A stretch of 64,000 bases of DNA, taken from a virus. Its lineage: Duplodnaviria; Caudoviricetes. The stretch is taken from positions 1,121-65,120 of the IMG/VR virus record IMGVR_UViG_3300028048_003120. One strand, 5' to 3'. Under the pieces are notes generated by a model, which was given only the letters and a program-made list of their open reading frames with translations, was not told the DNA's origin and did no database searches. This document shows, one piece after another, positions 4,497 to 57,924 of this stretch; the stretch's first letter is position 1; the number at the start of each line of letters is the position of its first letter. The translations under genes were made by a program, and so were the position numbers.

Positions 4497-5003
4497 TTAG
4501 AATTCAAGTTTCTCAGGGTATCCGACAGTAATGTCGTAGCGATTGACATCGGCGATGGAGCAAAGTTCCTCGATGGCGGCAGCGTGGTCGGCGGTCTTCT
4601 CGGCGCACTTCGCAGCGTACACCTCAATCATCGCAAGCATGGCTTTCGCGGAGGAGACGGGAATCGTCACGCCCTTGAACTTGACGGTTTCCTCGGCGAC
4701 ATCTTCCAGCGCTTCGATGGCGTTGCGCAGGTTGGCCCGGTCATACTTGTTAATCCAGAGCGTCTGACCTCCGATGGTAAAGCCGTTTACCTCGTCCGAG
4801 GAATCACGGACGAGCAGTTCGAGTTTCTTGTTGAGGACGGCGAGGCGCAGGGGGATTTCCGGCACGTTGCCTTCCTCGTCCTCCGGCGCTTCGCGGGCCT
4901 CGGCCAGCAGGTTTACGTACTCGATCTCCTCCGCAGGCTCAAGCAGCCCTTTGTGCCGGGAGAGGAGTAAATCCATAGCGGTAATAAGAGAGTCCTTTTC
5001 CAT
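4497..5003 (-). CDS. DUF4376-like tail-fibre-associated protein
   Basis: Start reassigned to MEKDSL (ATG 5003). DSSDEVNGFTIGGQTLWINKYDRANL...YDITVGYPEKLEF resembles DUF4376-type proteins. Overlaps the RT 3' end by 65 bp. Confidence 0.65.
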   Translation of the reverse strand: MEKDSLITAMDLLLSRHKGLLEPAEEIEYVNLLAEAREAPEDEEGNVPEIPLRLAVLNKKLELLVRDSSDEVNGFTIGGQTLWINKYDRANLRNAIEALEDVAEETVKFKGVTIPVSSAKAMLAMIEVYAAKCAEKTADHAAAIEELCSIADVNRYDITVGYPEKLEF

Positions 5004-6189
5004 GTTTCTTGTATTTGAAGTTGTATTTCCGAATGAGTATGGCGTTGTGCGTGTATTCCAGGTTAGCCTGCAAGCACTTGCGACTATCGTTGAAGAAGCA
5101 CATTCTCCACCAGCGCGGGGAGATTTCTTCCAGCAGGTCACGAATGATGGCATAGCCGTTCACGCGCTTCATCCGACCGAAGTACGAGTTCACGCTGGAG
5201 AGGAAAGAATCTACGTTCCTCGCGCTGACCCGCGTGTTCCAATAGCGAATCTTCACTCTTGCGCGGTTGATGATGCTATTGTTCACATATACCCTGTCGA
5301 GCTTGAAGGGCGTGCTGATGAACGTGCCGCCCTTCGTGTAGTGCTGGCAATACCGTTTGTCGGGATGCAGATGATAGCCGAAGGATTCGATGTCCTTCTC
5401 TACCTGCTTCATGTGCATCTTGCCCTGCTCCTTGTCGGCGAATACCCACCACATATCATCCACGAAACGACCATAGTGCAGGCCATAGTGTTCAATCTGC
5501 AGGTGGTCGAAGTCGTTGAGCGCATAGTTCTGCGCGACCTGCCAATGCTGGTTTCCCAGCGCCGCCCCGTGGTCGAGGTCCGTGGCAAATACCACGGACT
5601 TGTAGCGGGGGATATAGGCGGGCCACATCCAGATCGGAGATTTGAGATGCGCGTTGCTCGAAGGATAACTCCACGTGGTGCGGAGCAGGATATAGAGGAG
5701 GTCGTCACGCTCCACCCCTTCCGGGATGTTCCGCTCGATGAGCGAGCGGTACTGTTCGTAGGAACGGTTGAGGTCTGCGGACGGGAAATAAGCCTTGATG
5801 TCGCGGAAGAATATCCAGCAGTCCTTCGTGAAGCCCTCGCTTACATCATAGATGTCGGAGAGCAGGCAGTTGATAGCCTCGTCGGGGCCGTAACCGATAC
5901 GGTTGTTGAAGGTCCTGTCGGTAAGTTCCGCTTCCACGAGCGGCCTTACCCTCTTGTCGAAGTGCTGCTGGATAGTCTTAATCTGCATCAAGCAGGCGTT
6001 GACCTCCCTCCACCGTGGTTTCGGCGTGAGGAAGGAGTATAGGAGGGGAACAAGGTTGCGGTTCTCGAAGTCCTCATGCAGACGCACCAGATCGCGCTCG
6101 CGGTGCAGCTCGAAGTGCATGAGGTCGAGCGTGCGCACCTTGTTGGAGCGGCAATCGAAGAAGTCTTGTATGAGAGTTTCTCGTTCCAT
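4939..6189 (-). CDS. DGR reverse transcriptase
   Basis: 416 aa with RT motifs: PKPRWREVNACLMQIKTIQQ, FFRDIKAYFPS, LGNQHWQ, YGRFVDDM. Lies immediately downstream of TR and avd. Confidence 0.95.
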   Translation of the reverse strand: MERETLIQDFFDCRSNKVRTLDLMHFELHRERDLVRLHEDFENRNLVPLLYSFLTPKPRWREVNACLMQIKTIQQHFDKRVRPLVEAELTDRTFNNRIGYGPDEAINCLLSDIYDVSEGFTKDCWIFFRDIKAYFPSADLNRSYEQYRSLIERNIPEGVERDDLLYILLRTTWSYPSSNAHLKSPIWMWPAYIPRYKSVVFATDLDHGAALGNQHWQVAQNYALNDFDHLQIEHYGLHYGRFVDDMWWVFADKEQGKMHMKQVEKDIESFGYHLHPDKRYCQHYTKGGTFISTPFKLDRVYVNNSIINRARVKIRYWNTRVSARNVDSFLSSVNSYFGRMKRVNGYAIIRDLLEEISPRWWRMCFFNDSRKCLQANLEYTHNAILIRKYNFKYKKHGKGLSYYRYGFTPLPAQRAA

Positions 6190-6208
6190 AGTTCCTTTTT
6201 GAATAATT

Positions 6209-6330
6209 CACGACGGGCAGGGCGCGGTAACTGTTGTTCACGTTGTTGTTGTTGGCGTAGCCGTTGTTGCCGTTAAAGTACCAGGCGTTGTTGGCGTTGT
6301 TGCGAGAGCAAGACCAAGTGTTGGTGCCGT
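6209..6330 (-). repeat. DGR template repeat (TR), 122 bp
   Basis: AAC-rich sequence (14 in-frame AAC codons, 35 adenines) that differs from two variable repeats only at adenines. Confidence 0.97.
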
Positions 6331-6346: not shown

Positions 6347-6862
6347 TTACTCGTAGCCGCTGCTGCCGGCGGCGGCGGAGCCTCCTTTATTCATTGGGTG
6401 ACTGCCGCCTCCCTCCTTGGATGCGGTCGTGCCCTTGTTCCCTTTATCTTTTTTCGGTAAGCTATTTCTCCACTTCGTCGCGCCCTCATCGAGTTTTGCG
6501 ATACGGTTGAAGATTTCCAGCCGCATGGACTCCGGCGAAAGCGGCTCATGCTTCAATGGAATCTCAATCACGTTCCGGCGGGCGATGATGCGGGCGACAT
6601 GGACGAACTTCGTGACGGCGCTGCACATCTCCTTCAGATGATGCAGACGGTCATCGGGGAAGTCGTAAGCGTTTTGGAAAGCGGCCAGCACATCAAGAAC
6701 AAGATTGATGGCCCGGTCACAGTACCTACGGCGGTTCGTGGCATTCATCATCGGCTCCGCCCGGAGCAAAAGGTCGAGCAGGGCATCCGCGTCAACTGGG
6801 ATGCTCGGCTGCTCCTTCTCCCCGGTAAGCAGTTTCGGTTCAAAATACTCACTCTTTGCCAT
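6347..6862 (-). CDS. avd: DGR accessory variability determinant (Avd-like four-helix bundle)
   Basis: 171 aa helical protein between the target gene and TR. Ends in IAKLDEGATKWRNS (cf. the Avd G-W-x-x-S motif) plus a low-complexity tail that probably overlaps the 5' part of the TR RNA. Confidence 0.8.
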   Translation of the reverse strand: MAKSEYFEPKLLTGEKEQPSIPVDADALLDLLLRAEPMMNATNRRRYCDRAINLVLDVLAAFQNAYDFPDDRLHHLKEMCSAVTKFVHVARIIARRNVIEIPLKHEPLSPESMRLEIFNRIAKLDEGATKWRNSLPKKDKGNKGTTASKEGGGSHPMNKGGSAAAGSSGYE

Positions 6863-6873
6863 AGCATATCAAA

Positions 6874-6905
6874 GGTGGGGCTTGCCCGGAGGGACGCGCC
6901 CCACC
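6874..6905 (-). promoter_or_regulatory. DGR target-recognition hairpin downstream of VR1/IMH
   Basis: GGTGGGGC-GCGTCCCTCCGGGCAA-GCCCCACC: 8-bp stem, 16-nt loop, 41 nt after the end of TR homology. Confidence 0.85.
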
Positions 6906-6916
6906 AAGATTAAGTT

Positions 6917-8356
6917 CTAAACGTTCACTTCGTTCACATCCAAAAGCACGACGGGCAGGGCGCGGAAACTGCCGCCCACGCCGTAGTTGAAGGCGTAGCC
7001 GAAGTTGCCGCTAAAGTACCAGGCGCTGGTGGCGCCGTAGCGAGAGCAAGACCAAGTGAGGGCGCCGTTACTGATGGCCGTGCCACCGATGGCGTAGAGC
7101 GCACGGTTGATAGGATCGGCGTTGCGGTTGTTCGTTGTGTTGTACTTGATGGTCTTGAGGATGCTGCAAAGCGTCTCGATGTCGGGCAGACACCACTGGC
7201 CCTTGCGGAGCAGGTCGTGGTTGTACGACACATCCGCGCAATACTGGGCAGCGGGGAAAGCGGCGACGACCGAGCCGTCCTGCGCCGTGAAGGTCTTTCC
7301 GGCCATCTTGTAGGTATTGGTCCGGGTATCGCCGAAGTTCTTGCCGAACTGCCCCTGCTTCGTGGGATAGACGGGCAGGAAGGACTCCATGAATTTGAGC
7401 CAGCCAGCCTCGCCCTCGCCGTAGATGGCACGAAGGGCCGCGCAGCGGTCGGAGCCGCCAGAGTAGGAACTCGTACCGAGGTATCCAGGCTTGCAGATAG
7501 GATAACCGCGCACCGGGCTGGTCACATCAGAGGTCGGGTTGTAAGTGGCATTGTTCAAGTCCGCGGAGAAATACGCGATGGCGCGGTCCCAGTTGAGGAT
7601 GCAGCCTTCGCCCGTCCGCTGGCCGTTCTTGCGAATCATGGCCGTCGATGCGGTAATCTCCGGCAGGAGGTTCGCAGTGAGCGTGAAGCCCGTCTTGCCA
7701 GAGTTGGAGAACTGTTTCGAGTTGGTCAGATGGAACACGAGGTCGATTGCATCGACAACATCGTCGTTGTCGGTATCGACACCGATTGCCACCCAGTCCT
7801 GCACCTTGAACGGGTTGTCCTTCGCCGTCTCGGAGCCAACTGGCGTGTACTGCGTGTCGGCAGAGAAGAAGGTGTTGAGCTGCTCGACGAGAGAAGCGAC
7901 GGTCTCGGCATTGTACTCGATGAGATAGTCGTTGTACGTGGACCATGCGGAAGCGTCGCACATGGAAATCTTGCCGCTGCGGTCCGTACCGTCGCAGGTA
8001 AAGCCCGTAAGACGGAAGGAGTAGATATACGACCATGCCTTGTCCGCGCTGGTCTTGTTGCCAATGACGACAGTTCCGCGGAAGTCTGGATGATCCACGC
8101 CAAGCAGAACGGGACCTACGATGGTAAAGTTCGAGAAGAACGAGTTGCTGGAGAACGTATCGACGCTGATGAAGTGCATCGCAGAGTTACCGTCGAGGAC
8201 GCAGACGGAGCCGGTCTTCGCGAATTTGAGGCCCACGACGACATTCACACCGTCGAAGTGGATTCCATTATCTGCTCCGACGAGCGAAATGCCGCTCTCG
8301 AAGGCGCTCTTGCTGGCGGCTGCGTATTCCGCCTCGGTGTTGAAATACTGTATCAT
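6917..8356 (-). CDS. DGR target 1: tail-tip adhesin with C-terminal C-type-lectin-fold variable region
   Basis: 479 aa. The C-terminus (QWCLPDIETL...TWSCSRYGATSAWYFSGNFGYAFNYGVGGSFRALPV) carries VR1; the gene follows the tail fibre genes. Confidence 0.9.
   Translation of the reverse strand: MIQYFNTEAEYAAASKSAFESGISLVGADNGIHFDGVNVVVGLKFAKTGSVCVLDGNSAMHFISVDTFSSNSFFSNFTIVGPVLLGVDHPDFRGTVVIGNKTSADKAWSYIYSFRLTGFTCDGTDRSGKISMCDASAWSTYNDYLIEYNAETVASLVEQLNTFFSADTQYTPVGSETAKDNPFKVQDWVAIGVDTDNDDVVDAIDLVFHLTNSKQFSNSGKTGFTLTANLLPEITASTAMIRKNGQRTGEGCILNWDRAIAYFSADLNNATYNPTSDVTSPVRGYPICKPGYLGTSSYSGGSDRCAALRAIYGEGEAGWLKFMESFLPVYPTKQGQFGKNFGDTRTNTYKMAGKTFTAQDGSVVAAFPAAQYCADVSYNHDLLRKGQWCLPDIETLCSILKTIKYNTTNNRNADPINRALYAIGGTAISNGALTWSCSRYGATSAWYFSGNFGYAFNYGVGGSFRALPVVLLDVNEVNV
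6947..7068 (-). repeat. DGR variable repeat 1 (VR1)
   Basis: 122-bp ungapped alignment to TR with 21 mismatches, all at TR adenines (11 A>G, 8 A>T, 2 A>C). Confidence 0.97.
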
Positions 8357-14100: not shown

Positions 14101-14244
14101 GGAAATGGTACTCCCGTTGTAGGTCCACGTGGGGATCAGCGTGAAGACGTAGTTTCGCGGCCACACCTGCGCGCCCCGGAACATGAACTTTGCCATTCCG
14201 AGGTTTTTCAGTTTGAAGGCCGCGAAATCGTCGAACTTAGGCAT
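11149..14244 (-). CDS. Ser/Thr-rich tail fibre/spike with Ig-like (BACON-type) repeats
   Basis: 1031 aa, beta-rich, with recurring repeat ends ITQAAN, LYQKAN, VTFYQKK, IDVVQDG and SWISISGRTITV/SWLTVSGGNVTV. Confidence 0.7.
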   Translation of the reverse strand: MPKFDDFAAFKLKNLGMAKFMFRGAQVWPRNYVFTLIPTWTYNGSTISSLPEIPASGGSLYATWTLVGTQNGTEVYRANVTPTTSSIGDSTNFSYNRSTGQWKANDRGTNGYSSNTSGPSAAQWNAPARSCTLNVSYSGTVTINGQSVEVNAAAEQVSITQAANTASYVTAYNTYDQFSIELNNYYDSDHQAPACAAETYVSSASCRCGNYILWSSNAHAYYYQTIGRSMFTFTSTSSWISISGRTITVSSRGKTTGNQRTATIKGQLNPSYYPEVSGYATATLYQKANSSSTIAATCSSLAIDSFKIGNTTVTKINDCKQSTVTIVLKATWREAGTRYTAYDDGDTSAITQGTLHSNVTVTADSALEVTGADGTTTSTFTVTNKHTLSEKTWTVEATYLDKEASSSIKQIADSYTTTTTTTRTVSISVTNGSITAAGGSLTLSYAASHYDTTITKWNSDNVERSRTDGTAVNDTSRATISLSTSGPTGHADRFSRSGTTLTHTSMTNKEGTDKVTVTIAHPDDNTKTASTGEYSATNSKTYGTITLSASSESHSSATVAAYEDAVTFTASCPITWTSGYNDPGLSTSDFSFALQGTPCNNGYRDYTRSGNVITFGSLLKNTRSQGTTTVRASHSGAGNKDITITELKNAKGSGSSVDTPGQKTYGTSYQEYDYSNYSLSISLSQYSSSSAAAPFGAATYNNILSCSAGGHKERTMSPWSQPHTIVTTYTWDSGETDVTTTNTTETGTDEGSWGNVSDTPTITPAQSWLTVSGGNVTVAKNEGSARSCVITAKVTRLDGGSNITRTVTFYQKKCVELSVDLSSLEFVANGGTATFVVTYKNTSFSISHVTTVPGGTDPVYSLSSSSGGGSSSSGTKTITVTVKPNTAASTLMGVITVTPGDNAASPVEIDVVQDGMIAGSVTGFAGASWASNYSISYIWTLTNTGNTQKTISLTMYICRTSSANDNPDTVGESVATISIGSKTVPPANGNVPGSVDGSGTRTASRNANYTYWAKLTGTGVTSSWQQFEENE

Positions 14245-16777
14245 AGATGGCGTACAAGGTGTTGTTGTCGGGCGTTATGCTATTGTAGTAGGATTGAGTG
14301 CAGAAAACGATTGTAAGGCCCCCGGAGAGCGTCGTAGTGACGAACGTTCCACCGCTGATATTGCCGACGGCGGTTTCAAGTGTCGATACCCTGCTCATCA
14401 GCGCGCTTACCAGCGCCGCCGACGGCACATAATCCCCGTAGGAGGCATCGCTATATCCAACCCAAGTGTCGAGACGATAGAGGACATTTCCGAGGGACCC
14501 TCCCGTGGCCGCACCTGCGGTTATATAACTTGCCGCCGTGATATGGCCGGACGCGGCCACGTTCACGCCTGAGAGATTGCCCGTGGCAGACACGTTACCG
14601 CCAGCGGAGATATTTCCCGTAGCGGAGAGAGCGCCCGTAACCGAGAACGGATAGAGCGCAGTTATGAGGGTAATCGCGTCATTCGCCCCGGTCGTGACCG
14701 AGAATAGGTTATTGAAGGTCTGCGCAAGGAGGTAGTTCGAGTGCGAGTGCGACGAAAGGGATATGGACTTCGTCACGTCCTCGACGGTCAGCGTCACATA
14801 TTCGTTGGCGAGGCCGGTGCCCCATTCCACATCAGAGCCTCCGCTGATGTTCTGGATAGCCGCCTCGATTGCCGAAAGCCTGCTGGCCACGATGGGAGCC
14901 GCAGGGACCCACTCTGCGTGCGTAGTGGAGTCGTAGCCCGTCCAGGAATCCAGCCGATAAAGCACGTTGCCAAGAGAGCCACCCGTGGCCGCACCTGCGG
15001 TTATATAACTTGCCGCCGTGATATGGCCGGACGCGGCCACGTTCACGCCGGAGAGATTGCCCGTGGCATCTACATTCCCTCCCGCCGATATGTTCCCGGT
15101 TGCAGACAACGCCCCGTTCACGGCGAAGGGATAAAGGGCCGTAATCAGCGTCACGACATCGTTGTTGTCCTTCGTAACGCTGAAAAGGTTATTGAAAACC
15201 GATGCGAGAAGGTATCCCGAATGGGTATGCGAGGCGAGCGAGAGGTTGTACGAGTTATTCCCGGTCGTGAGAACACCGTATTCCGTGTTCCCGCTGGCCA
15301 CGACAAAGTCAACATCCGAGCTGCCCCCTCCACCGTCAATGATGGCACTTACCGCCGTCTCCAGCGTGGAGATTCGGGAGCGCAGGGCATAGGCCAGCCC
15401 AGCGGAGAACGCCCATTCCTCCCAGCCGGTGTTCAGGGTCTGATCCCAACTGTCGAAGATATAGAGGACATCGCCGGACGGGGTTTGCGAAGAAGGATTG
15501 AGCGCGCCGGCGGTAATGTACGACGACGAGGTTATTCCACGGTCGAAGGCTATGGGAGCGTTGGCCGTGTTCGCGAGGGAAATGTGCCGGAGGATGGCCG
15601 ACACGTTCTTCAATACCTCTGCGGTCGCCGGGTTCGTGGTACTGTCTGCCGCCGTCTGAATGATGTACAAATCGAGCAGGGCCTTTATTCCCTGCTGGCC
15701 CTGCGCAAGACCACCCTCCGGGTACTCGATTTTTTGGAACATCTCCAGCAGGGCGCGCAGCGCGGAATCGTCCCCGTAGGGTTTCAGAAACTTCGTCACG
15801 CCGTTGACGGTAAGGGTGTAGTAGTCCTCGCCGTCCTCGCCCCATTCTGCCGTCGTGATGTCGAGGTTCTCCAGCACCGTGATGCGGTTCTCCAACTCCA
15901 CGCCCAGCCGGGCCGACATAAGCCATTCGTCCTGATCGCTATCCGATACGTATTCCTCCCAGCGGTCGAGGCGGTAGAAAAGCGTCTCGTCAATCTCGCC
16001 ACGGGCGAGCGGCCCGTCACCTATGAGGCCGACGGCGGAATACATCGGGAGGTCGCGTCGCAGCATCCACACGGGTTCCGCAGCCGTGCCCATGTTCTCG
16101 ATGAACAAGTGTTGCAGCAGCTCCGTGATGTTGCGCCTCGTGGTCCGGGTTTCGACGGGGGCCACCTCCTCGTCTTCTTCTTCCTCCTCATTATCCGAAT
16201 CTGAATCTGAATCTGAATCCGTTTCCTCAACGACGGACTGCAAGGTCGGGATGGCCTCGACCTGATCAATGTACATATCGCCTATCATCAGCGTACCGAT
16301 GCGGTCGTCGCCGATGCCAAGCAGCGTGCCGACCGCAGAGATAGCCTTGTACGGGGTTCCGTCGATAGAGCGGTAGAGGTCGCCCGTAAGGGGATGCGCG
16401 ATACCGGCAGACTTCGGGAGCCACAACGACGCGCCGACGGTACTCAAAGCGTCCGCGAGTTCCAGCAGACGCGCATCCAGGAGCGTGAGCGTCACAAGGT
16501 CGTTGATGGTATGCGTCCCGGTAAGGCCCTCGATGATGATGTTCACGGCCCCGTTCTCGTTCACTACGTAGGATATGGACGGGAAGAACCCCATCTCCGC
16601 AGATATGACATGCCGTCCGTCGCGCTGGGCGATGCGGAAGTCAATATCCATCGTCTGCGAGATGAGGTCCAGCACGGCGCTGCTGCTGCTCTCGCGGAGC
16701 CGCACATCGCTCTGCGTGACCTCAACGCCGAAGTCCAGCAGGATATTCCTCTCGGTAGCTGTGAACTCGAATTTCAT
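14237..16777 (-). CDS. Tail fibre protein with internal repeats of about 160 aa
   Basis: 846 aa; repeated YRLDxW...EW...RIxxLE units and GALSATGNISAGGNV-type beta repeats. Confidence 0.7.
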   Translation of the reverse strand: MKFEFTATERNILLDFGVEVTQSDVRLRESSSSAVLDLISQTMDIDFRIAQRDGRHVISAEMGFFPSISYVVNENGAVNIIIEGLTGTHTINDLVTLTLLDARLLELADALSTVGASLWLPKSAGIAHPLTGDLYRSIDGTPYKAISAVGTLLGIGDDRIGTLMIGDMYIDQVEAIPTLQSVVEETDSDSDSDSDNEEEEEDEEVAPVETRTTRRNITELLQHLFIENMGTAAEPVWMLRRDLPMYSAVGLIGDGPLARGEIDETLFYRLDRWEEYVSDSDQDEWLMSARLGVELENRITVLENLDITTAEWGEDGEDYYTLTVNGVTKFLKPYGDDSALRALLEMFQKIEYPEGGLAQGQQGIKALLDLYIIQTAADSTTNPATAEVLKNVSAILRHISLANTANAPIAFDRGITSSSYITAGALNPSSQTPSGDVLYIFDSWDQTLNTGWEEWAFSAGLAYALRSRISTLETAVSAIIDGGGGSSDVDFVVASGNTEYGVLTTGNNSYNLSLASHTHSGYLLASVFNNLFSVTKDNNDVVTLITALYPFAVNGALSATGNISAGGNVDATGNLSGVNVAASGHITAASYITAGAATGGSLGNVLYRLDSWTGYDSTTHAEWVPAAPIVASRLSAIEAAIQNISGGSDVEWGTGLANEYVTLTVEDVTKSISLSSHSHSNYLLAQTFNNLFSVTTGANDAITLITALYPFSVTGALSATGNISAGGNVSATGNLSGVNVAASGHITAASYITAGAATGGSLGNVLYRLDTWVGYSDASYGDYVPSAALVSALMSRVSTLETAVGNISGGTFVTTTLSGGLTIVFCTQSYYNSITPDNNTLYAIYA
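14502..15068. repeat. 87-bp near-perfect direct repeat, 480-bp period
   Basis: 14502..14588 versus 14982..15068 differ at one position (14570 T / 15050 G). Confidence 0.9.
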
Positions 16778-17211: not shown

Positions 17212-17252
17212 AAAAAAGAAGGGGATGCCGCAACCATGACGAACGGCATCCC
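17212..17252 (-). terminator. Rho-independent terminator
   Basis: GGGATGCCG-N13-CGGCATCCC stem followed on the minus strand by CTTCTTTTTT; downstream of 17285..17944. Confidence 0.75.
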
Positions 17253-17284
17253 CATAACAGGGCAGGTACAACCTAACAAACTCC

Positions 17285-51384: not shown

Positions 51385-52117
51385 AGGCAAGCGCTGGATA
51401 AAACTGTACCCGGAACTTCTTTCGTGGGAGTGGGCCGACAAGCCCGGAATGTTGGAGTTGTGGGTCCGTCTCCTGCTGATGGCAGACCGCGACGGCGTGG
51501 TCATTACGACGGAAAGTGAACTCGCCCGCCAATGCCGCGTGAGCCGCCAGCAGATGCGTACAATGCTCATCAACCAAGAATCAACCAAGAACATAACCAA
51601 GACTTCAACCAGGGGAGCAACCAAGAACGCAACCAAGATAACTATTTGTAATTGGGCGCTTTACCAGCAATCGCCAACAAGAGAGCAACCAAGAGAGCAA
51701 CCAACTGAACAACCAAGAGAGCAACCAATAATCAACCAAGAGGTCGCTTCTATACCTATTTCCTCTCCTTCGGAGAGTAAACATAATATAGAGAATATAG
51801 AGAAAGAAACTCCCTCTATCGAGGGAGTAAAGAAAGACGGCGATGAATCGCCGCTTTCCAAACGCCAAAAGAAATTTTATGACGAATTGGTTCCGTTTCT
51901 CGACACCCACGGAGGCCCGTACCCGAAGGAGATGATCCGGGCGTTCTACAACTATTGGAGTGAGCCGAACAGAAGCAAGACCAAGATGCGCTGCGAGCTG
52001 CAGCAGACATGGGAACTTCCCCGAAGGCTTGAAACCTGGGCCTCGAAGGAACCGATGAAAAAGAACAATCAACAATCACAATCAGTCAACGAAGAATGGG
52101 ACGAACAAAAGATATAG
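51374..52117 (+). CDS. Replication initiator protein
   Basis: Start MASKGKRWIKLY; N-terminal wHTH (WVRLLLMAD...TTESELARQC), internal iterons and C-terminal FYNYWSE...WELPRRLETW. Confidence 0.82.
   Translation: MASKGKRWIKLYPELLSWEWADKPGMLELWVRLLLMADRDGVVITTESELARQCRVSRQQMRTMLINQESTKNITKTSTRGATKNATKITICNWALYQQSPTREQPREQPTEQPREQPIINQEVASIPISSPSESKHNIENIEKETPSIEGVKKDGDESPLSKRQKKFYDELVPFLDTHGGPYPKEMIRAFYNYWSEPNRSKTKMRCELQQTWELPRRLETWASKEPMKKNNQQSQSVNEEWDEQKI
51571..51741 (+). repeat. Iteron array / probable replication origin
   Basis: About ten (C/T)AACCAA(G) copies at roughly 12-bp spacing in two clusters separated by an AT-rich spacer, inside the initiator gene. Confidence 0.75.
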
Positions 52118-57340: not shown

Positions 57341-57880
57341 ATGATCCAACCCGTTATCAACAACTATGAGGCGCTGAAAGACTGCCTCTATGTTCTCAAT
57401 CCGGCAGACAACAAGTTTGTCAAGGCCGAGGAGTGGATTAAGACGGACAATCCCTCCATCGCCCAGCTCGTGGCCGTAAAGACCCCGTATTACCTGATCG
57501 TGTTCAGCAAGAATTTCGTGCATGACAAAGAAGGGAATCCCGTCAACCTCAACTTTGAGGATGTTCAGAAAGCCTGCGCAGAGTTCAGCGTCCCCGGCAG
57601 CTCCCTTACGTTCCGCGCTCCGCGCCGTAATGAATCCAACTACATCTACGACGCTTGGTGGGCTGGCGGTCTGAAAGAACTCATCGAAAAAATCGACGGA
57701 GACGACTTCGGGGTGCGCTGGTGGACCTGCGAGAAAGATTCTTGGTCTTGCTCTCGCAGCTACGCCAGCGGCGCCTGGTACTTTAGCGGCAGCGTCGGCT
57801 GCGCCGGCAACGTCAGCGTGGGCAACAGTTTCCGCGCCCTGCCCGTCGTGCTTTTAGATGTGAACGAAGTGAACAATTAA
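57341..57880 (+). CDS. DGR target 2: stand-alone C-type-lectin-fold (DUF1566-like) protein
   Basis: 179 aa; NFEDVQKAC...FRAPRRNE...WWTC core; the C-terminus carries VR2; no signal peptide or TM evident. Confidence 0.9.
   Translation: MIQPVINNYEALKDCLYVLNPADNKFVKAEEWIKTDNPSIAQLVAVKTPYYLIVFSKNFVHDKEGNPVNLNFEDVQKACAEFSVPGSSLTFRAPRRNESNYIYDAWWAGGLKELIEKIDGDDFGVRWWTCEKDSWSCSRSYASGAWYFSGSVGCAGNVSVGNSFRALPVVLLDVNEVNN
57741..57850 (+). repeat. DGR variable repeat 2 (VR2), remote
   Basis: 110-bp ungapped alignment to TR with 18 mismatches, all at TR adenines (14 A>G, 4 A>T). Confidence 0.97.
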
Positions 57881-57890
57881 TCTTACCCCT

Positions 57891-57924
57891 TGGCGCTCCG
57901 CGTCCCTCCGGGCAAGGAGCGCCA
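57891..57924 (+). promoter_or_regulatory. DGR target-recognition hairpin downstream of VR2/IMH
   Basis: TGGCGCTCC-GCGTCCCTCCGGGCAA-GGAGCGCCA: 9-bp stem, same 16-nt loop as at VR1, 40 nt after the end of TR homology. Confidence 0.85.

Follow-up and report, generated by a model that had tools for sequence, protein, structure and literature searches.

To our knowledge, the rules that make a sequence a target of a DGR have been tested in BPP-1 and Legionella only. BPP-1 and related phages carry a GC-rich inverted repeat just 3' of the VR, which is absent after the template repeat (TR), and the resulting hairpin accompanies every active target of the cassette. Its stem of 8-10 bp varies in sequence and keeps its pairing, and its 4-nt apical loop, with the consensus 5'-GRNA on the sense strand, is better conserved than the stem. 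Mutational work on BPP-1 has revealed that it is the structure of the stem that counts, not its sequence, and that both size and sequence of the loop count (PMC3240598); the IMH and the hairpin can be transplanted together to a heterologous kanamycin-resistance gene (Guo et al. 2011, PMC3240598). The stem-loop boosts efficiency, is not absolutely required, and has been modelled on single-stranded target DNA, where it perhaps keeps the target strand open for cDNA pairing; how the cDNA finds and enters its target is still an open question (PMC12875486).

The MyDGR server searches for hairpins with a GRNA loop and a 7-10-bp stem lying 4-34 bp from the VR (PMC6602519). By criteria of their own, Wu et al. 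(2018) found GC-rich inverted repeats in 34% of DGRs, and the accessible sections of their article contain no analysis of loop sequences or of target repeats within a genome (PMC5758913). A layout in which a single RT and TR serve a tail-module target and a remote small target with a lectin fold, on opposite strands, has been described for Quimbyvirus (Benler et al. 2021, PMC8008677) and by Wu et al. for non-adjacent targets within prophages (PMC5758913); the Quimbyvirus paper makes no mention of hairpins, IMH or inverted repeats. The portable marker and the two-target layout are already published (PMC3240598, PMC8008677, PMC5758913). The locus analyzed here shares this layout, which recurs in at least 10 related IMG/VR genomes, and adds to it a hairpin of a different form.

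The DGR cassette and its two targets

The window, that is, the whole stretch of 64,000 nucleotides under analysis, belongs to a provirus record of 65,120 bp that is rated complete and whose lectin-tail sites are two targets and the TR only. Its minus strand harbors a complete DGR in the gene order of BPP-1 (target gene 1 with VR1, a GC-rich hairpin called hp2 here, accessory gene, TR and RT), and the second target is encoded far away on the other strand:

4939..6189, minus strand: DGR reverse transcriptase (RT), 416 aa; Pfam RVT_1, PHROG reverse transcriptase (E 2.6e-26)
6209..6330, minus strand: TR, a direct repeat with VR1 and an inverted repeat with VR2
6347..6862, minus strand: Avd-like accessory gene, 171 aa, a four-helix bundle in the AF2 model
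6917..8356, minus strand: target gene 1, 479 aa, with a putative C-terminal lectin-like fold; weak Lcl_C match, C-terminus alignable with other DGR targets
6947..7068, minus strand: VR1, at the 3' end of target gene 1, a repeat with the TR
57341..57880, plus strand: target gene 2, 179 aa, about 51 kb from the cassette, with orthologues in relatives
57741..57850, plus strand: VR2, differing from the TR at TR adenines only

VR1 and VR2 are the only cognate VRs of this DGR, and within the repeat all their differences from the TR fall on TR adenines. Their tails are paralogous, being 86% complementary over 139 nt. The Lcl_C match of the target is weak (E 0.007); the C-terminal domains of the targets can be aligned to one another, and 34/34 related records have them again as DGR targets. 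The RT has 187 homologues at E<=1e-30, and the named matches are Bacteroidales MAGs, many of them from rumen or gut. A blastn search of GenBank phages with the DGR cassette gave no match. DGR RTs are usually described with an [LIV]GxxxSQ motif and a YxDD box; the consensus of this RT clade (alignment A2) reads LGNQxWQ and RFVDDM, with the final Q kept and W where S is expected. Sequence-family searches gave no match for the 171-aa accessory protein. Its AF2 model (pLDDT 81) is a four-helix bundle, and the best fold matches are the S23-family structures 2gsc and 2rld and the Avd of BPP-1 (4dwl, 8ub7), with probabilities of 0.99-1.0 and weak E-values; as modelled, the protein would be an Avd-type four-helix bundle.

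The TR is followed by AATTATT and, about 19 nt on, by the start of the RT, with no inverted repeat there. This gap (6190-6208, minus strand) measures about 17-20 nt across the clade, and that of BPP-1 roughly 140 nt. With so short a gap, any RNA structure of the spacer that recruits the RT would have to sit inside the RT coding region.

Two hairpins with a common inner module

Behind each VR lies a two-tier GC hairpin:

6874..6905, minus strand: hp2 at VR1; 8-bp outer stem, GC/AA internal loop, 4-bp inner stem with a U.G pair, CTCC apical loop
57891..57924, plus strand: hp2 at VR2; 9-bp outer stem (10 bp with a terminal T.G), and a 16-nt inner module identical to that at VR1

The first-pass annotation, made from the sequence alone, had read both hairpins as a common 16-mer flanked by perfectly paired arms. 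This reading holds, the 16-mer occupying 6882-6897 (minus strand) and 57900-57915 (plus strand), in the sense orientation of each target gene. Its distances of 41 and 40 nt from the end of TR homology are also correct, and both become +42 when counted to the first GG of the stem. The stems, described as swapped, do pair perfectly at both sites, but the exchange is partial: compared from the loop side, 4/8 pairs are the same and the other four are compensatory swaps, exchanged on both sides. Searched for with up to 2 mismatches, the 16-mer turns up exactly twice in the window, and with up to 1 mismatch it turns up twice in the whole 65,120-bp record; shuffled windows give a mean of 0.04, with two or more matches in 0/100 shuffles. 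Pairing alone is not significant, since perfect 7-bp GC-rich inverted repeats with loops of up to 20 nt are equally common in the window (36) and in shuffles (about 35). The significance of hp2 therefore comes from the shared 16-mer, from its place behind both VRs and from its conservation in relatives. Found at an equal distance from both VRs and missing after the TR, hp2 is a GC-rich inverted repeat with a stem of 7-10 bp downstream of the VR and not of the TR. The inverted-repeat scan yielded one other repeat with a 9-bp stem, a perfect GC-rich one with a 15-nt loop at 17221-17253, in a short minus-strand gap between ORFs.

Identity between the VR1 and VR2 ends is a mosaic: 24/25 in the coding tail, a diverged spacer, 50% in the stems, 16/16 in the 16-mer, and again a diverged 3' flank. 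A single contiguous gene-conversion tract cannot make this pattern, and by a rough estimate the 16/16 identity would have a probability of about 1.5e-5 if the core drifted at the rate of the stem. Mosaic and core together thus suggest purifying selection on the inner module at both sites. The VR2 hairpin is identical in the orthologous loci L080-L082 (77-92% protein identity) and L135, and both hairpins are unchanged in the second assembly of a close relative (L135/L137), which was also the one further relative, with hairpins identical to those of the window, found in a metagenome scan with a 20-mer from the VR end.

The 16-mer had been taken for a long loop of 16 nt, but it folds into a conserved inner stem-loop of its own. 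At both sites the predicted RNA fold comprises the outer stem, a 2x2 internal loop (GC 5', AA 3'), a 4-bp GTCC/GGGC inner stem with a U.G pair, and a CTCC tetraloop, with an energy of -25 kcal/mol and z-scores of -4.0 and -5.3; with DNA folding parameters the inner stem is weaker. The annotation had itself proposed the GTCC/GGGC stem around CTCC, and both the minimum free energy fold and the covariation in relatives agree with it. Once this covariation-supported stem is counted, the loop has 4 nt and not the 16 nt of a naive reading, and hp2 fits the short-loop rule of the DGR hairpins that have been studied. Rfam searches at both hp2 sites returned nothing relevant.

In this form hp2 is like the hairpins of BPP-1 and related phages in its GC-rich repeat just 3' of the VR and not after the TR, in a stem whose sequence varies while its pairing is kept, in an apical loop of 4 nt that is better conserved than the stem, and in its presence at every active target of the cassette. 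It differs from them in its loop, which is CTCC or TCCN(-GT) and not GRNA, and in a stem interrupted by the 2x2 internal loop and the inner stem with its U.G pair, in place of which more distant relatives have a bulged A. The TR-VR homology of the window ends abruptly, without the imperfect IMH/IMH* tail of the BPP-1 type, and between VR and hp2 the window has a mini-hairpin and a repeated spacer motif that BPP-1-type sites lack. The published distance of 4-34 bp from the VR and the 40-41 nt between TR-homology end and hp2 are not comparable measures, because the published figure is counted from the end of an IMH, which here lacks a counterpart in the TR. By its stated criteria, MyDGR would miss hp2 (PMC6602519).

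The mini-hairpin (hp1) and the spacer lie as follows:

6923..6937, minus strand: hp1 at VR1, a 15-nt mini-hairpin in the coding tail; four Watson-Crick pairs around tandem G.A/A.G, GAA loop
57860..57874, plus strand: hp1 at VR2, the same 15-mer
6906..6916, minus strand: spacer at VR1, a motif of TAAnCTT type ending in CTT at the stem, present in nearly all the related VR1 and VR2 tails listed
57877..57890, plus strand: spacer at VR2, the motif TTAATCTT plus 6 nt, ending in CTT at the stem

hp1 starts about 9 nt past the TR homology, in the last codons of the target. As a class it has a G..A loop (GAA, GAAA, GGA, GTA, GTAA and others) on a stem of six pairs, which are all Watson-Crick or G.U unless a tandem G.A/A.G takes the center. 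Under a strict definition, allowing no mismatches except G.A and demanding the G..A loop, it occurs in 29/55 unique tails against 0.75 +/- 0.8 in shuffles (maximum 3), whereas lenient hairpin scoring gives no excess over shuffles; several more tails have versions of 4-5 bp. The 22 distinct stem-loop sequences indicate that the encoded residues vary while the pairing stays. DNA mini-hairpins of the d(GCGAAGC) type, with a GNA loop, are extra-stable, and tandem G.A pairs are a stable motif; the hp1 of many relatives holds this heptamer or a C-GNA-G or C-GNNA-G core, a resemblance of sequence only. The spacer consists of one or two TAAnCTT-like units, often including the stop codon, whose CTT abuts the GC hairpin, and it is kept across RTs of 36-97% identity. 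The conserved sequence is AATTAT 3' of the TR and CTTT(T) 3' of the VR. Being nearer and smaller, and having a GRNA-like loop, hp1 could be the true functional counterpart of the BPP-1 hairpin, with hp2 doing something else.

hp2 in related Bacteroidales-phage DGRs

Relatives were sampled by searching IMG/VR and GTDB genomes with the RT alignment A2 and by direct look-ups, and the TR/VR pair was located at each locus. Nearly all related VRs are followed by a GC hairpin of 8-15 pairs, which starts mostly 40-45 nt past the TR homology (55 unique tails). The apical loops of the 49 unique hairpins fall into these classes:

Loops containing TCC: 30/49 (CTCCGT 9, CTCC 6, TCCC 6, TCCT 2, TCCG 2, others)
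GNRA-like loops: about 8/49 (GTAA or GCAA, in most cases closed by a C-G pair and accompanied by a bulged T)
Other classes: the remainder of the 49

The TCC core has a fixed orientation. On an RT tree of 41 sequences the pyrimidine loop class is clustered, with 6 changes against a shuffled mean of 10.7 and 1/500 shuffles as low, while the GNRA class is unclustered (152/500 shuffles as low). Starred branches force at least four origins of GNRA-type loops within TCC-type RT clades, among them L075, in the six-member clade of the window, and L066, in the TCCC clade. The pattern makes the loop class a strong habit of a clade that is nevertheless not locked to the RT lineage. Read on the opposite strand, the U.G pair would become a C.A mismatch; this and the fixed orientation of the loop give a hint that it is the sense strand that folds. 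It stays a hint because the predicted stabilities of sense and antisense hp2 show no significant bias across the clade. A kissing interaction between the hp2 loop and the TR-RT spacer was considered and discarded, as a GGA occurs in the spacer, or does not, irrespective of loop class.

Close relatives have hairpins of the two-tier form with an altered inner module:

L015 (RT 81% identical): inner stem shorter by one C and one G, one base per arm; CTCC loop retained
L077-L079 (RT 68%): two differences from the window's 16-mer; first inner pair changed from G-C to A-T
L076 (RT 74%): A-T as first inner pair; C-rich apical loop of 5 nt
L008 (RT 68%): A-T as first inner pair; C-rich apical loop of 6 nt
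L083/L086 (target 2 orthologue, 51%): inner stem of 3 bp, CTCCC loop, different outer stem
L075 (RT 66%): GC/AA loop and the G-C, T.G base retained; GTAA as cap
L059 (VR2 orthologue of an L008-type phage): G-C, T.G base retained; GCAA as cap; internal loop TC/GT and not GC/AA

Across 10 related two-tier hairpins 96.6% of cells are in standard pairs, against 36-50% in slid-partner controls. Half of the pairs (6/12) change on both sides, the first inner pair covaries between G-C and A-U, and the U.G pair of the inner stem is invariant (10/10). The exact 16-mer has a different fate. The annotation had called the loop invariant and had named its loss in homologous DGRs as what would refute the idea; relatives with RTs of 66-81% identity do carry altered versions of 13 to 18 nt, with compensatory substitutions, one base lost per arm, or another apical loop. 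A search of IMG/VR for the exact 16-mer with inverted-repeat flanks gave five matches to the 16-mer and none so flanked; lacking inverted repeats, these matches are ascribed to chance, and the 16-mer is not a widespread label. As far as the aligned sequences tell, what is conserved in homologous DGRs is the architecture of the inner module and not the exact 16-mer, and the part of the earlier claim that stands is that the inner part is more strongly constrained than the outer stem.

Within-genome pairs were collected with a lectin-tail profile (A5), which finds in related IMG/VR records the main target and the TR and, in about a dozen of them, a third, remote small target; the remote matches were compared with the cognate TR and VR1. 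Ten remote VRs, from 10 other phage genomes, have A-biased mismatches (from 11/14 to 22/22 at TR adenines), and all ten have the hairpin. Together with the window, the VR1/VR2 pairs behave as follows:

Hairpins identical or nearly so: G003, G023, G024
Same stem, different loop: G005 (TCCG/TCCT), G007 (TCCT/AACC)
Stems different, apical part the same or nearly so: G019, G020, G025, G027 and the window
Stem and loop both different: G014

The third class, that of the window, amounts to 5/11 pairs. In G007, a single TR serves a TCCT and an AACC loop, with 13/13 VR2 mismatches at TR adenines. Inner modules of VR1 and VR2 differ also in the L008/L059 and L076/L083 lineages. There, VR1 and VR2 lie on different contigs or in different samples, and the only link between them is a tail of 50 identical nt or a TR that is nearly cognate, with two non-A mismatches.

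Two decayed pseudo-VRs have no hairpin: that of G008 (L120, G008:14350-15250) has 12/32 mismatches at A, and that of G026 (L128, G026:1-650) has lost its VR 3' end. hp2 goes with the VR and not with avd, for it is present at the remote VR2, where there is no avd, and absent from the TR and from the decayed pseudo-VRs. L120 and L128 are TR-like lectin-tail paralogues without hp1, spacer motif or hp2, and look like former targets. An identical 171-aa protein of the target-2 type is found both in a remote context (L083:3001-3822, L086) and upstream of an L076-type hairpin with avd and RT (L084:2086-3147); either the two contexts have recombined across the VR tail that they share, or an assembly is chimeric. 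The VR2-bearing protein P0126 (L083-L086) has one exact sequence on five contigs, the four shown representing four samples. Such sameness is unexpected for an active VR; diversification of the remote target may have ceased for now in that lineage, or a single variant may prevail.

Function of hp2

The best explanation, with a probability of roughly 0.65, is that the two hp2 are cis-acting target-site hairpins of one DGR, an element of the BPP-1 class in a form specific to the Bacteroidales-phage DGR clade. An active VR would then carry a composite 3' signal made up of the GC-rich end of the TR homology, CTTT(T), hp1, the stop codon, the TAAnCTT-type spacer and, about 41 nt on, hp2. By analogy with BPP-1, hp2 would fold immediately 3' of the VR in single-stranded or supercoiled DNA and would make the integration of TR-derived cDNA at the VR end more efficient; on the same analogy, one avd-TR-RT cassette should be able to diversify in trans any VR bearing the hp2 3' module. 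Purifying selection on the inner module, on both its shape and its loop, would explain why the 16-mer inherited at the two VRs is still the same. Stems would be free to change by compensation, other loops would work in relatives, and the 16-mer would not be a unique sequence password.

Judged by its sequences, the clade contributes a natural covariation series and a composite target grammar, and the established picture of the hairpin is unchanged. The roughly 50 distinct hairpins of the clade and the 11 VR1/VR2 pairs within genomes can be read as a series of natural mutants, in which position, orientation, GC stem and compact apical loop are held, in one subclade together with the internal loop and the U.G pair, and in which the stem sequence and even the loop class drift. 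Clade-specific hairpin forms may add to low inverted-repeat counts such as the 34% of Wu et al. (PMC5758913). Remote targets in gut phages could become easier to predict with the composite signal, which could also guide the design of portable target modules for DGR diversification in Bacteroides.

It could be argued that the Avd-RT-RNA particle, or a host factor, recognizes the sequence of the inner module and docks there, as if reading a 'zip code', and that the cassette finds both genes because the module is identical at the two. The 16/16 identity between stems differing at 4/8 pairs fits this proposal, as do the GC/AA internal loop and U.G pair, invariant or nearly so in 10 relatives, the fixed-orientation TCC core in 30/49 unique hairpins, and the sequence-dependent action of the BPP-1 loop (PMC3240598). 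It is nevertheless unlikely. The exact 16-mer is lost in DGRs with 66-81% RT identity, the single TR of G007 serves a TCCT and an AACC loop with all 13 VR2 mismatches at adenines, the inner modules of L008/L059 and L076/L083 differ (with the linkage noted above), GNRA-type loops have at least four origins within RT clades of the TCC type, and no complementary sequence covaries in the TR-RT spacer. The sequence-specific recognition site, or strict 'address label', put forward by the first-pass annotation is accordingly not supported, given that one TR and RT serve different loops in relatives; as an idea, the portable label is not new either, both transplantability and the sequence-dependent loop being in Guo et al. 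2011 (PMC3240598). The constraint looks, from these comparisons, like a preference for a compact structure in fixed orientation and not like a unique address, because relatives diversify VRs with other loops and the loop class flips within RT clades. A more elaborate version is equally doubtful: a three-part target grammar of Bacteroidales-phage DGRs (GNA-loop mini-hairpin, TAAnCTT repeat, TCC-loop GC hairpin), in which the inner module of hp2 docks the DGR particle or a host factor, and TCC and GNRA loops are alternative target codes.

Against the target-site reading stand two departures from the published hairpin, namely the CTCC or TCCN apical loop in place of GRNA and a distance of about 41 nt that nominally exceeds 4-34 bp, although the two distances are counted differently. 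Transcription terminators, too, typically have GC hairpins with UNCG- or GNRA-like loops, which also counts against it. hp2 might thus be a terminator or a 3' stabilizing stem-loop of the target mRNAs, its link to the DGR being indirect; like an intrinsic terminator, it has a GC-rich stem and a compact loop a short gap after the stop codon of both targets, its predicted RNA folding is strong (-25 kcal/mol), and a T-run follows the hairpin in a few relatives (L021/L022, L029, L117). This is quite improbable, however. Intrinsic terminators have a T-tract, whereas hp2 has no conserved one and accompanies active VRs, not just any gene end: five or more T within 8 nt past the stem occur in only 4/55 unique tails, A is commoner than T there, and terminator scans find none at either hp2 site. 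At VR1, moreover, a terminator would stop transcription just before avd-TR-RT in a tight same-strand operon, and pseudo-VR genes lack hp2. Wu et al. 2018 are equally negative for DGR inverted repeats in general (PMC5758913). That the 16-mer has no function of its own, being a leftover of target duplication or of gene conversion between VR tails, is very improbable: the tails are indeed paralogous, and the (nearly) identical whole hairpins at VR1 and VR2 of G003, G023 and G024 suggest recent copying, but a conserved 16-mer inside half-diverged, fully compensated stems and diverged flanks is hard to explain so, orthologues of VR1 (L015) and of VR2 (L083) have each kept the module over long distances, and the covariation statistics argue otherwise.

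Two further repeats were observed in the window. An ORF of 846 aa (14237..16777) contains, at 14462-15241, an internal duplication of 300 nt with 73% identity between copies 480 nt apart, and 51571-51731 is occupied by a short tandem repeat, degenerate, in which units resembling CAACCAAGA are frequent.
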